Positions 2,704 to 63,070 of a stretch of DNA of 64,000 bases are shown in pieces (the stretch's first letter is position 1; every line of letters starts with the position of its first letter). The notes beneath the pieces are model-generated. The model saw nothing but the letters and a program-made list of their open reading frames with translations, had not been told where the DNA came from and ran no database searches. Where the stretch lies: NCBI GenBank assembly GCA_964016885.1, contig OZ024748.1, forward strand, positions 59,582,001-59,646,000, in the 5' to 3' direction. A program made the translations under genes and the position numbers. Origin of the DNA: Eledone cirrhosa. Lineage: Eukaryota.

Positions 2704-3530
2704 AGAGTTAGAGTTCCGACCGTTTCGACAGCTTGATCCAGTTCGGATCTAACTGTCTAAACGGCCGAAGCTCAGCCGTCGGAGTGCTGACTCTTATCCT
2801 ATTACCCACTCTACTACCCTAAGTATTGAGTACTCTGGTGTGTTATGGACCACCTGGTATCCTACCATACCATCTTTTATATATATATATATTATTGAGT
2901 TATTATAATTAATTCTGATCTCGCACCACCAACAAGATTCAACATGAACGAAGATGGATGAGTTGCATAACGTCGAGTGCTTTCGAAGATTACATCACAT
3001 TCTGGTCCAGAAATAGCCGTCAAAAAGGCTTGAGCTCTGCCCTCGGGGTAAACTTTTCGTATTTGTTCTATCACCTTACTGCTATCCTCTTTCTCTCTCC
3101 CCCTTCTCTCTCCTTGTACCTCTTGCTTTCTTTCACCCCCTCTGTTGGTCACACCCTCTCGGTAGCCTCTTCCTCACACTTTCACTCACTCACTCTCTGC
3201 TACTCCCCCTCTCTCACTTCCTCCGTTCTGACTGTGTGAAATCCTTTTCTCTCTCACTTTTCGCGTATCTCGGACGTGATTGCCTCTTCTCGTCATTTGA
3301 TATGTTCGGACTTAAGTCCACAAGATTCATTGACTTGTCTCTCTTTTCCTCTCTTTACCTTGCATTACTACCATGTTGTTGTTTACTTTCCTCTGTTTTC
3401 CTCTGTCCCGATAACTTAATTAGTTATCGCTCGCACTGATTTTATGTATCTAGTTTTTAATGCGAAGAAATACCAATGATAATCAGCAGACTACTGATGA
3501 TGGACAGTCCCGTTTTCGGTCTATTTTTCA

Positions 3531-6654: not shown

Positions 6655-6725
<71 letters not shown>

Positions 6726-6729
<4 letters not shown>

Positions 6730-6915
6730 AACGAGTAGGACCCCGACGGCTGAGCTCAGGCCGTTTCGACGGCTAATTCTGGAATTAGCCGTCGAAACGG
6801 CTTGAGCTCAGCCGTCGGGTTCCTACTCGTTCCTATTACCCACTCTACTACCCTAAGTATTGAGTACTTTGGTGCGTTATGGTCCACCTAGGTTCCTTAC
6901 CACATTTCCTTCGTT
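6726..6915 (+). mobile_element. Fold-back short retro-insert family (probable Penelope-like 3' end); ~8 copies
   Basis: Shared GAAACGGCTTGAGCTC.GCCGTCGGG...CCTATTACCCACTCTACTACCCTAAGTATTGAGTAC...CCTTACCAC, ending in or next to (TA)n. Copies at ~2700, 6726, 9611, 16171(-), 41389, 52486(-), 59255(-) and 60878. Confidence 0.75.
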
Positions 6916-6952
6916 ATAAATAAATAAATAAAAAAATATATATATATATTTT

Positions 6953-9581: not shown

Positions 9582-9766
9582 TAGATATATATAGATATAT
9601 ATCGATATATATTCTGGACTGAAATAGCCGTCCAGAAATAGCCCTCGAAACGGCTTGAGCTCTGCCGTCGGGGTCATACTCTCTCCTATTACCCAGTCTA
9701 CTACCCTAAGTATTGAGTACTCTGGTGCGTTATGGTCCATCTGGTTCCTTACCACAACTCCTCCAT

Positions 9767-9851
<85 letters not shown>

Positions 9852-10763: not shown

Positions 10764-11060
10764 GTGTTAAACAATATTCAATGATTATGTCAAAGAATAA
10801 GTTTTACAGTAGATTGGAAGCACTCAACGGTAAAATAATTTTCTGCAGTTATTAATATTAAAATATAAGTATTAATAAAATAGATGGTCTTTTGATCAAT
10901 TACATTTTATTATACATATTTCGGATGTACAACAGTACGTCCTCATCAGACAAAATATAATGATACATGTCATACCCTGAGATGTTAAATGGTTAAGATT
11001 TAACTACCTTGATTAAATCTTAACCATTTAACATCTCAGGGTATGTCATGTATCATTATA

Positions 11061-11309: not shown

Positions 11310-11354
11310 TTGCTCTGATGAGTCCTGGTTAATGGGACGAAACACTGTCAGCAA
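11310..11354 (+). ncRNA. Canonical minimal type-I hammerhead ribozyme
   Basis: TTGCT-CTGATGA-GTCC(TGGTTAATG)GGAC-GAAAC-ACT-GTC/AGCAA, immediately followed by AATAAA. Confidence 0.85.
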
Positions 11355-13332: not shown

Positions 13333-13403
13333 TGACGTACATGGGAGTCGAACCCACATCTTTGGTTATCCAGACCACTGTGCTACCATTACACCAACAC
13401 ATC
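13333..13403 (-). pseudogene. tRNA-like cloverleaf (pseudo-tRNA, GGA anticodon) inside a TA-inserted element
   Basis: GATGTGT TG GTGT AATGGTA GCAC A GTGGT CTGGATA ACCAA AGAT GTGGG TTCGACT CCCAT GTACGTC A; all four stems pair, with several G-U pairs. Confidence 0.6.
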
Positions 13404-16153: not shown

Positions 16154-16361
16154 CATATATATATATATACATAACGAAGGAAATGTGGTAAGGAACCAGG
16201 CGGACCATAACGCACCAAAGTACTCAATACTTGAGGTAGTAGAGTGGTTAATAGGAACCAGTAAGACCCCGACAGCTCAGCTCAAGCCGTTTCGACGGCT
16301 AATTAGCCGTCGAAACGCTTGAGCTCAGCTGTCGGGGTCTTACTGGTTCATATATATATAC

Positions 16362-40981: not shown

Positions 40982-42644
40982 CTGAAAGACAGAAGACAGA
41001 AGATTTAGAAGGGTTCATTCAAATATGGCGGCGGCTGCAGGGGTCTAACTCTTAAACAATCAACCGACACACACACATATATATATATAAAATTGTTAAA
41101 CAATATTCAATGATTATGTCAAAGAATGAGTTTTACAGTAGATTGGAAGCACTCAACGGAAAAAAATTATTTTCTGGAGTTATTAATATTAAAATATAAG
41201 TATTAATAAAATAGATAATCACTACCTTGATTAAATCTTAACCATTTAACATCTCAGGGTATGTCATGTATCATTATCTTTTGTCTGATGAGGACGTACT
41301 GTTGTACATCCGAAATATGTATAATAAAATGTAATTGATAAAAAGAACATCTATTTTATTAATACTTATATTTTAATATATATATATACACTCAATACTT
41401 AGGGAAGTAGAGTGGGTAATAGACTTTAGTCCAGAAATAGCCGTCGAAACGGCTTGAGCTCTGCCGTCGGGGTCATACTTTCTCCCATTATATTACCCAC
41501 TCTACTAGCCTAAGTATTGAGTACTCTGGTTCCTTACCACAACTCCTTCGTTATATATATCATCATCATCACCGTTTTACATCCGTTCTTCCATGCTAGC
41601 ATGGGTTAGACGGGTTGTCCTGTTGTGTGCAGTGTCTGGTCGGCTGACCATGCCTTGCTCATACAGGAACTGATCTGGCTTGATTTCTACAGCTGGATGC
41701 CCTTCCTAACACCAACCTCATTTACAGTGAGTGCTGGGTGCTTTTTCGTGGCGCCTACACGTCCACTTTACAGTGTGGGCTGGGTGCTTTTTTGCCGTGG
41801 CACCTCCACGACCACCTTGCGGTGGGGGGTGTGGGGGCATATTGTTTATATGCTTCAGCATGTACCCATGGGAGGTCGGGTACTTTGTATTATTGCGCGA
41901 CGCCAGAAATATATATATATATATATATACTACAGGAACACATTTATAAAAACATACATATATACACTACTCAAGTACAGCAACCAACACATCATTACAC
42001 ATATACAAAAAACTACACACACAGAGTACAACAACCAACAGACATACACACACGAGTACAGCAACCAACAGACATACACACACGAGTACAGCAACCAACA
42101 GACATACTCACACGAGTACAGCAACCAACACACACAAGTACAACAATAAACATACACACAAGTACAACAACCAACACACATACATACATACATACATACA
42201 TTTACACAAGTACAACAACCAAGCAACACACATACACACAAGTAAAGCAAGCAACACACATACACACAAGTACAGCAACCAACACACATACATACACACA
42301 AGTACAGCAACCAACACACACACAAGTACAACAACCAAGCAACACACATACACACAAGTAAAGCAACCAACACACACACTCTACAACCTCATAAATACAC
42401 CAATTAACATACACTAAAAAAGTATGCCAATACACACACACATACTTCAAGTATACCACCAACACACACAAACTTACTACAAACCTATGTGATGATGATG
42501 ATGATATGATATATGACAATACAATGATGATGATGATGATGACAGTACGATGATGATAACATGATGGTGATGATGGAGGCCAAATTGTCACAGTGTAAGG
42601 AGACTAGATGTGAGGGGGGGGGGGGGATACATTAAAGTTCTTAC

Positions 42645-52438: not shown

Positions 52439-52486
<48 letters not shown>

Positions 52487-53120
52487 CGAAGGAGGTGTGG
52501 TAAGGAACCAGATGGACCATAACACACCATAGTACTCAATACTTAGGGTAGTAGAGTGGGTAATAGGAAAATGTTTAACCCCGACGGCAGAGCTCAAGCC
52601 GTTACGACGGCTATTTCTGGACTCTGACTAGAGTCCAGAAACAGCCGTCGAAACAGCTTGAGCTCTGCCATCGGGGTTAAACATTTTCCTCTATAGAGAG
52701 AGAGAGAGATATATAGATATATAGAGAAAGAGTGAGAGAGGTGTGTGCATACGTGTGTATATATATATATATATCTCATCATCATTTTACGTCCGCTTTT
52801 CCCCGCTTGCAAGGGTGTGTGTATATATATATATATATATACTCACACACACACACACACACACCATTAACTCCATACCAGTTTCCTGATGCCATGTGGA
52901 TTTTGGCAACATTCAGTGACCAGAATGCATGTGTGAGTATGTATGTGTATGAATGTGCGTGTGTACGTTTATGTCTGAGTATCTGCATGTATATATATGC
53001 CTGTGTGAGTGTGTGTGCATGCGTGTGAGTGTGTGTAGGATATAAGAAGGTAGACATTCATTAAGAAAACACAGATGAAGAAGAGATCAGCCCCGGGGTT
53101 GGTGGGAGCCTCATTATTTA

Positions 53121-59030: not shown

Positions 59031-60149
59031 ATTATTTATTCAAAGTAATCCAACTTATTTTACAAACGGGGTAAAAAAATATATTCTGGACTCAGTCCCG
59101 CACTCCTTTCTTTATTATAGTCAAGATATATACCTCGATACCGACGTGAACCTAAACATGGAGAGCTCACCCGGGTAAACCTACAGTAACTCCGCGTTAT
59201 ACTCCCTGGATATATATATCAGGATTATACCAGTTTAAACTAGTAAGACAAAAATTCAGCAGGGTACTTGATACTTAGGATAGTAGAGGGTCATGGCCAG
59301 ACAGCAGAGCTCTTGCCATTTTGACAACAAATTCCAGACATTTGCCATCGAAACAGCTAGAGCTCAACTGCCAGGCTCTGACTCTACTGTGTGTGTGTGT
59401 GTGTGTACACACACACATATATATACACACACACACACACACATATTAATTTCAAAAATTTCGAAGATTCAAGGAATTGTCAAACTGACATATGTTTCTG
59501 CCAGCCTAAAATTTCCACCCTTTGGCCATAATATTACAATTTTATAACTTAACCTTCAGGTGTTGATCAGAGTCAGCATCATCAGAGTTTATTTATGCAT
59601 CATCAATATTTCACATAGATTTAAAGATTGTTACTTTAAAGTACTCAATCATCATTCATTATGGTAACAAATTACAAGAATATTCAAAAATACCAAAGAA
59701 TTTTTTTAAAAATCAGTTTCAAAATTAATTTCAAAACAATAACTTCAAAAGTTTAGCAATGCTGGATGGATGAATACGTTTGTGAGAGTTAGAGAGAATT
59801 TTCTACTGTGCTATTACAGGGGACTTTACTTTGAAAGATTTATATGCTTAGAGTCATTATTAAAAGAAGTTTATTAGTAATGATAATGAAATCATGAGAA
59901 TATATCTTGAGGAGAGCTATATTCATACTGCAAAGTGGTCGTGGAGCTGTCACGACAAAAAAGCACCCAGTCCACACTGTAAAGTGGTCATGTAGGCGCC
60001 ACAGTAAAAAAGCACCCAGTGCTCACTGTAAATGAGGTTGGTGTTAGGAAGGGCATCCAGCTGTAGAAATCAAGCCACAGGACAATCTGTCTAACCCATC
60101 CTAGCGTGGAAGAATGGACGTAAAACAGTGACGATGGTGATGATAATTA

Positions 60150-60585: not shown

Positions 60586-60706
60586 CTTTATTAGTTCTGG
60601 TGAGAGACCTGAAGCTGGCGCTGTATCCATATATTTCTTCAGATCTTGGTCAAGATATTCAAAGACAAGGTAGAGTTTTTTATCACTCTGTACAACATCA
60701 AGTAAT
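60586..60706 (-). CDS. CDK2: CDK2 coding exon 3 (LLDVVQSDKKLYLVFEYLDQDLKKYMDTAPASGLSPELIK)
   Basis: 121 nt, ccag/gtac boundaries, phase matches exon 2; hinge motif LVFEYLDQDLKKYMD. Confidence 0.95.
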
Positions 60707-61112
60707 CTGGAGTGAAGACAGAAATTAATGACTGAAGGCAACATGGCATCATACATACCAGCAAAACAATGTGTTGATGAGCTGCCTCAGTTTATAAATG
60801 GGCTTTGGATGGATGTGTGTATTTAGCAGAACCATGCAACGAGAGAGAGAGAGGGAGTGTGTGTGTGTGTGCGCACGAAAAGATTCAGAACCCCGACGAC
60901 TGAACTCCGGCGTTTGGATCTAGCTGTGGAAATAGCCGGAGCACAGCCATTGGGGTCCTGAATCTTTTCATACTACCCACTTTACTACTCCAAGTATCGA
61001 GTACTCTGGTGGGTTATGGTCTACCTGGTTTTTACCACACCTTATCTGATATATATATATATATATAGTGACGAAACATAAGACAATTGCATGAACTCAT
61101 AATCCTTTATTT

Positions 61113-62667: not shown

Positions 62668-63070
62668 CAGTCGACGTAATCACCCTTTCCCCCCTCAGTC
62701 GACGTAATCACCCTTTCCCCCCTCAGTCGACGTAATCACCCATTCCTTCCTCAGTCGATGTAATCACCCTTTCCCCCTTCAGTCGATGTAATCACCCTTT
62801 CCCCCTTCAGTCGACGTAATCACCCTTTCCCCCCCTCAGTCGACGTAATCACCCCTTCCTTCCTCAGTCGACGTAATCACCCCTTCCTTCCTCAGTCGAC
62901 GTAATCACCCTTTCCTTCCTCAGTCGACGTAATCACCCCTTCCTTCCTCAATAGACGTTATCACCCTTTCTTTCCTAAGTCATCATTATCACTTCTTCCT
63001 AAGCAACGTTATCACCCTTTCTCAGTTTGTTATCACCCTTTCTCAGTTTGTCATCACCCCTTCCTTCGTC
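62668..63070. repeat. 28-29-bp minisatellite
   Basis: TCAGTCGACGTAATCACCCTTTCCCCCC units. Confidence 0.9.

Follow-up and report, generated by a model that had tools for sequence, protein, structure and literature searches.

Short palindromic insertions that carry only the 3' half of a hammerhead ribozyme recur throughout a sampled region of the Eledone cirrhosa genome, and a Hydra-clade Penelope-like element (PLE) gives rise to these stubs, its shortest insertions. We consider it probable that the stubs arose from a cut in (TA)n whose two ends each primed reverse transcription (RT), at positions +61 and +141 of the element, after which the two cDNAs ran off the 5' end of the RNA and were joined head to head. 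Beyond this, we lean, if only slightly, towards reading the tens of thousands of stub palindromes as a fossil 5' RACE, in which a capped start in the ribozyme loop, cutting of the RNA in vivo by a U3-A8 hammerhead and a general mechanism of two-ended priming on one RNA would all be recorded.

Results

An index palindrome with half a hammerhead

The window, that is, the whole stretch of DNA analysed here, is 64 kb long, and element positions are numbered from +1, the first A of the AGTCCAG motif of the parent. The index insertion is a near-perfect palindrome (6725-6783/6782-6917) made of two arms and an unpaired tail, and it lies between (TA)n runs, with a TA-rich flank also 3' of 6917 (Table 1). 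The initial annotation had described copies that keep the 3' half of a hammerhead, lack CTGAnGA and carry an inverted copy of the downstream sequence upstream, and all three observations hold for the index copy: GAAA (6794-6797), a stem III with a palindromic loop and the GUC triplet (6814-6816) are present, and CTGAnGA does not occur within 6725-6917. The partner strand of stem II and the core, found at about -55 to -38 in the parent, are missing. The predicted ribozyme cut in this copy falls at 6816/6817, which corresponds to +41/+42. The tail arm begins 4 nt downstream of the inner end of the short arm, with a 2-nt overlap, and the pair is non-nested; the junction type of the short arm matches that of loci L206 and L196. 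In full-length copies the tail continues into the 5' UTR, and the ORF starts at +232.

A search of the window for repeats was swamped by (TA)n. About eight copies had been counted initially; we find nine related places, only three of which are clean two-armed palindromes (6726, 16168-16353 and 52485-52692), the others being older degenerate relatives (2711, 59264 and 60887) or copies whose inverted piece is atypical or no more than a stub (3005, 9630 and 41390).

Table 1 Features of the index palindrome and of related copies in the window
Feature	Position	Strand	Detail or basis
Short arm	6725..6783	-	Element +3 to +61; stops at fixed outer site 1
Tail arm	6782..6917	+	Element +7 to +141; stops at fixed outer site 2
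Hammerhead stem II, 3' strand	6782..6793	+	
Hammerhead 3' half	6794..6821	+	Sequence, and fold of parent copy: GAAA, stem III, GUC, stem I 3' strand
Outer site 1 (TAT), candidate RT start with 3-nt (TA)n match	6834..6836	+	+59 to +61; end point of 72/76 inverted arms
80-nt tail ending in TAT (outer site 2, candidate second RT start)	6837..6917	+	
(TA)n target flank	6672..6726	.	Sequence
Second palindromic stub	16168..16353	-	Both arms from +8; central AATT common to both
Third palindromic stub	52485..52692	-	Both arms to +1; extra G at -1 on each; 6-nt insert between
Copy with 9-nt inverted stub	9612..9769	+	Stub +1 to +9; short templated insert; tail arm from +2
Copy with atypical inverted piece	41390..41557	+	Piece +58 to +90; tail arm from about -2
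Fragment with 6-nt inverted stub	2999..3049	+	Element +2 to +46
Older related subfamily, degenerate palindrome	2711..2867	+	
Older related copy, degenerate palindrome	59264..59384	-	
Older related copy, internally deleted	60887..61039	+	

The window also holds hammerhead motifs of other families. The canonical CTGATGA motif of one of them forms an inverted pair at 10949 (-) and 11067 (+), about 120 nt apart, and appears again at 41285 (+), while hammerhead-like motifs (CTGAnGA, short stem II, GAAA) at 11315, 11676, 29834 and 51758 (+) come from at least three unrelated families. Opposite-strand CTGAnGA repeats at 25470/25678, 58263/58351 and about 17860-17910, together with a short palindrome centred at ~17881, probably represent other PLE families with the same head-to-head layout. 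Elsewhere, the segment at ~60606-60672 (-) resembles, by its motif, an exon of a cyclin-dependent kinase, and copies near it may sit in introns of that kinase-like gene. An Rfam tRNA match of 49.7 bits at 13333-13403 (-) is possibly the head of a tRNA-derived SINE, and a tandem array with a 28-nt unit occupies about 62750-63070.

Abundance and sampling of the family

The 33-nt tail motif has 33,063 exact matches in the genome (~3.0 Gb), compared with none for the reversed control, so the family is not a chance resemblance. Forty evenly spaced 10-kb stretches contained about six family loci, a number that does not allow statistics, and we therefore sampled consecutive motif matches instead, taking 98 of the first 100 listed, from the first 19 Mb of one chromosome. 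This sample is blind to the junction, every copy in it bears the tail motif, and we curated its inner ends manually, using two alignment runs. It contains 76 short two-armed insertions and 8 copies reading far upstream, the remainder being one-armed or unclear, and the ratio of stubs to long copies is about 9 to 1.

The parent is a Hydra-clade PLE by its motifs

Traced through the longer copies, the parent unit measures about 3.4 kb and has a single ORF, in which RT is followed by a C-terminal GIY-YIG domain, with a hammerhead in sense orientation at the 3' end. Locus L104 has an open frame of 610 aa from an ATG. The Pfam match to GIY-YIG is weak (E 0.021, below the cut-off). Of the translations listed, 24 contain RWR and 21 contain DKT, giving an RWK-like motif and DKT in place of DKG; the CxCx5C linker, CxxC and CxH are present in the parent protein, and inspection of the L061 protein by eye found no CCHH. 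These features fit the definition of the Hydra clade by motifs and (TA)n targets, as given in the accessible text of Craig et al. 2021 (PMC8557442), and on the strength of its motifs and a by-eye protein comparison we assign the parent to this clade. A single ORF, a C-terminal GIY-YIG, an RWK-like motif, DKT, CxCx5C, CxxC and CxH, (TA)n targets and a 3'-end hammerhead are shared with the clade, of which Hydra-1_Obim is an example, and the protein of Hydra-1_Obim resembles ours by eye. Differences also emerge: Hydra-clade units are given as under 3 kb, and Hydra-1_Obim is listed with a CTGAAGA core, whereas our parent is longer, has a U3-A8 core with a long loop 2 and is far outnumbered by its stubs in the sample. 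As a separate observation, at L020:1-1000 (the same place as L064) a 630-nt arm of the family stands head to head with a segment of another PLE type that covers the RT thumb and the endonuclease, which suggests either that two different RNAs contributed to the insertion or that one insertion is nested in another.

Genome-wide we obtained 3,433 matches to the hammerhead core. All of the first 100 listed read YTGAnAA; 64 of them have U3-A8, with each of the four bases represented at N7, and the other 36 a C3/A8 mismatch. The parent carries a full type-I hammerhead with a predicted U3-A8 core (YUGAnAA); the intact master anticipated by the initial annotation does exist, but not with the CTGAnGA core expected of it. 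Folding of L183, a U3-A8 copy, gave the three-way junction, at -27.4 kcal/mol free and -26.6 kcal/mol constrained, and this fold was not obtained for another parent copy, L109 (z -0.59). Rfam reported no hammerhead at gathering score in four parent loci, and none among the 150 window matches listed, most of which were TA-repeat noise.

A U3-A8 core is a described variant of PLE hammerheads, as seen in the available portion of Cervera and de la Pena 2014 (PMC4209133), where U3-A8 covariation is documented and motif pairs lie on opposite strands 100-700 bp apart, as they do here. Unlike the hammerheads in that portion, ours has a full 5-bp stem III, a long loop 2 and one large C3/A8 subfamily. 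The C3/A8 subfamily includes young copies with long open frames, and ribozyme cleavage may thus be dispensable for spread. A non-LTR retrozyme was considered and rejected, as the stubs are head to head and devoid of the first half of the core; the accessible part of bioRxiv 10.64898/2026.07.22.740005 describes such retrozymes as head-to-tail tandem units with a full hammerhead in each.

A first inner limit at +1

The initial annotation had placed the palindrome apices in the stem II hairpin and called for a test of their clustering. The apices do cluster within the span of that hairpin, with the 5'-most inner end between -5 and +7 in 66 of the 76 stubs and further upstream in one. They are not spread over the hairpin, but sit at the 3' edge of its loop, ~37 nt from the 5' strand of the stem, and intermediate inner ends between -5 and -70 are nearly absent. 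In the whole genome, 27,951 arms reach +1; among the first 100 of these arms listed, 66 stop there and 34 read on, as scored by eye. All three subfamilies have T[CT]AGT at +1, which we take to resemble an animal initiator with the A as start. Of the 27,951 arms, 5,420 have G and 890 have A at -1, a position occupied by T or C in the parents, so that G is about six times as frequent as A. Among 44 arms stopping near +1, the -1 base is T in 19, C in 14, G in 8 and A in 3, so that G is not the commonest, and some of the G's at -1 derive from the partner arm. An extra G is reported, in the consulted section of PMC4038843, as a mark of RT copying a cap, and the available text of PMC2377424 describes an internal promoter with an initiator in D. 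virilis Penelope. From the sequence pattern we infer that +1 is the capped transcription start of an internal promoter in the stem II loop. An RNA starting there would omit the first half of the core, which would explain the half hammerhead of the stubs.

That account of the missing half is better than the one first proposed, in which the nascent cDNA snaps back on the copied stem II and primes second-strand synthesis on itself. Such priming requires both strands of stem II to have been copied, and the parent loop and 5' strand (a loop of ~35 nt) should therefore be found at the apex; this was the case in 0 of 98 copies. The left arm exactly complements the right arm and not the 5' strand of the parent, and neither the extra G at -1 nor the pile-up at +42 (see below) is predicted. 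Although the apices fall within the stem II hairpin span and a few junctions use helix-derived overlaps, such as 6 nt of stem III in L178, we regard stem II priming as highly improbable.

The limit at +1 could alternatively reflect processing at a 3' splice site in place of a transcription start. The sequence around +1 is indeed like a 3' splice site, with a pyrimidine run followed by YAG kept in all subfamilies, and an intron end of D. virilis Penelope maps at the hammerhead in the available portion of PMC4209133. A splice acceptor should, however, leave a constant upstream exon, and none precedes +1 among the 100 arms listed, which makes it the weaker rival; the AG itself is moreover included in the arms. 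Its probability appears to us very slight.

A second inner limit at the predicted ribozyme cut

A further limit coincides with the predicted cut. When two non-parental upstream bases are required, 732 arms begin at +42, compared with 80 at +39 and 252 at +45. Removing read-through by eye (14 of 100 at +42, about 15 of 80 at +39 and about half of 100 at +45) leaves ~630, ~65 and ~125, respectively, so the pile-up at +42 is 5-10 times its neighbours; relative to +45, the control with more comparable base sets, the excess is about five-fold. Ten loci among the 100 rows listed are perfect palindromes with both arms from +42 and a single base between them, a structure not easily produced by fold-back because a 1-nt loop would be needed. 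The partner arm extends upstream of +42 in only ~7 of 86 rows, versus ~28 of 65 at +39, which indicates that the two arms of a palindrome tend to stop at the same RNA 5' end. In addition, 3 of 29 ORF-bearing copies start at +44, and there is one inverted arm with its end at +42. Going by these positions, +42 would be the 5' end left in vivo by hammerhead cleavage in a minority of templates. An apparent subfamily enrichment at +42 was dropped, as that subfamily already makes up about half of the background sample.

Fixed outer ends and variable junctions

In 72 of the 76 stubs the outer end of the inverted arm is at +61; the other outer end lies at +141, 80 nt beyond, and both sites end in TAT and lie in (TA)n. 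Long ORF-bearing copies are closed by these two ends as well. A TA-rich flank follows the tail in 97 of 98 copies, and in the remaining one the tail continues into the ORF. Of the variability in arms and loops noted initially, the part concerning junction sequences stands, while the outer ends are fixed. The junctions consist of 0-6 nt overlaps or short inserts, some of them locally templated, and their sequences differ between copies. Long A or T runs occur at the junctions of L014, L028 and L232, which suggests untemplated A-tailing of cDNA ends before joining. Target duplications are not resolvable within (TA)n.

The stubs are short, flanked by TA, present in high copy number and share a few recurring junction types, all of which would suit a MITE-like palindrome moving as one unit. 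Against this, the junctions are heterogeneous, the ends are asymmetric and identical to those closing long ORF-bearing copies, and the finding of the parent element refutes the idea, to which we give almost no credence. The attribution of these structures to PLE ends and not to a MITE, already made in the initial annotation, is thus upheld.

With a margin of 3 nt, 24 of the 76 stubs are non-nested (14 by at least 10 nt), 21 are nested (3 by at least 10 nt) and 31 are symmetric. The arms overlap by at most 2 nt or not at all in L176, L185, L204 and L235. Among ten long two-armed insertions, drawn from 20 fetched loci, six are non-nested by 0.8-2.8 kb, three are possibly nested and one is two-tailed. 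Contigs of three public runs (from one study, possibly the source of the assembly) also hold many non-nested joints, which excludes an assembly artefact. Stem II snap-back would have nested the second arm, contrary to these 24 stubs and six long copies.

Fold-back could also operate through chance microhomology instead of stem II: the cDNA started at +141 would run off, prime on itself and copy to +61, and non-nested arms would result from later deletions. The nested (21/76) and symmetric (31/76) stubs, 52 of the 76, fit such fold-back equally well, locally templated junction inserts point to short-range self-priming, and some non-nested cases could indeed come from later deletions inside palindromes. 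The subfamily alleles common to both arms suit it too: in the arm comparison, 157 non-majority cells are shared and 129 of 3,146 are discordant, evenly between the arms, so the arms share subfamily alleles and their sequences do not discriminate between mechanisms. What weighs against fold-back is that the arms are non-nested in 24 of the 76 stubs and in six of the ten long copies, that the +42/+42 palindromes with one base between would demand a 1-nt loop, and that the stop of the second arm at +61 is left unexplained, given other TAT motifs in the tail. As a general account it seems to us unlikely; for the nested subset, local fold-back of a run-off cDNA is possible. An arm difference at +45, seen in matches to the window copy, was a query bias and disappeared in an unbiased set.

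Finally, stubs might be long inverted insertions later shortened by central deletion. Long inverted insertions of the same family do exist, and many junctions have overlaps of 1-6 nt. Yet deletion explains neither the sharp limits at +1 and +42, the extra G nor the untemplated runs, and lengths between -5 and -70 are nearly absent; we judge it very unlikely.

Discussion

Two-ended priming with run-off at the RNA 5' end is the reading that we prefer for the stubs. An endonuclease would cut (TA)n on both strands, and each 3' end would prime RT, one at +141 and the other at +61. With the RNA beginning at +1 or +42, run-off of either cDNA would follow within 20-141 nt. After the loss of a few terminal bases, microhomology or end-joining would unite the two cDNAs, and short inserts, either untemplated or copied from nearby sequence, could be left at the joint. 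A single RNA molecule, or a single RNA species, would probably be the template for both arms. The stubs would then be the PLE counterpart of a strong-stop product, and in long copies RT would start at the 3' copy of the same two sites.

Two well-known systems work in a similar way. In L1 twin priming, a second primer from the other target end produces an inversion without duplication, and LTR strong-stop DNA results from run-off at the RNA 5' end. The family belongs to neither, and, unlike in L1 twin priming, most arms here overlap, which generates a palindrome.

Insertions in which a PLE is accompanied by an inverted, 5'-truncated copy and has a tail on one side only are already known from PMC8557442, and ours share their head-to-head arms and one-sided tail, with a tail of 80 nt instead of 30-40. 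In the accessible text of that paper, the tail is ascribed to endonuclease resolution, the origin of the inverted copy is left open and the build of tandem and inverted PLE ends is named as an open task; here the truncation is fixed at predicted RNA 5' ends. The closest parallel is Poseidon, a PLE from Anolis, whose protein cuts and extends both strands and whose tail is flanked by two internal RT starts (Frangieh et al. 2024, PMC11167929, as far as its available text goes). The two flanking RT starts, the AT-rich target and the cutting and extension of both strands seen with Poseidon in vitro have their counterparts here, read from genomic DNA. According to that text, however, RNA reads did not end at the ribozyme cut and cleavage was dispensable in vitro, whereas in our case genomic arms pile up at the predicted cut; the inverted arms are left unexplained in the part of the paper available. 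Within our literature search, which had most subscription papers outside its reach, no study came up that links the centres of PLE palindromes with two-ended priming or with the 5' ends of the RNA.

Stubs of this kind are liable to be misfiled as MITEs. The pattern described here bears on the origin of the inverted pLTRs, as the initial annotation had surmised, and the fossil-RACE reading, if true, would account for both the tail and the inverted pLTR of PLEs. The family yields predictions at the nucleotide level: the RNA should have a capped 5' end at +1 and a further 5' end at +42, RT should start at +61 and at +141, and priming should be two-ended.
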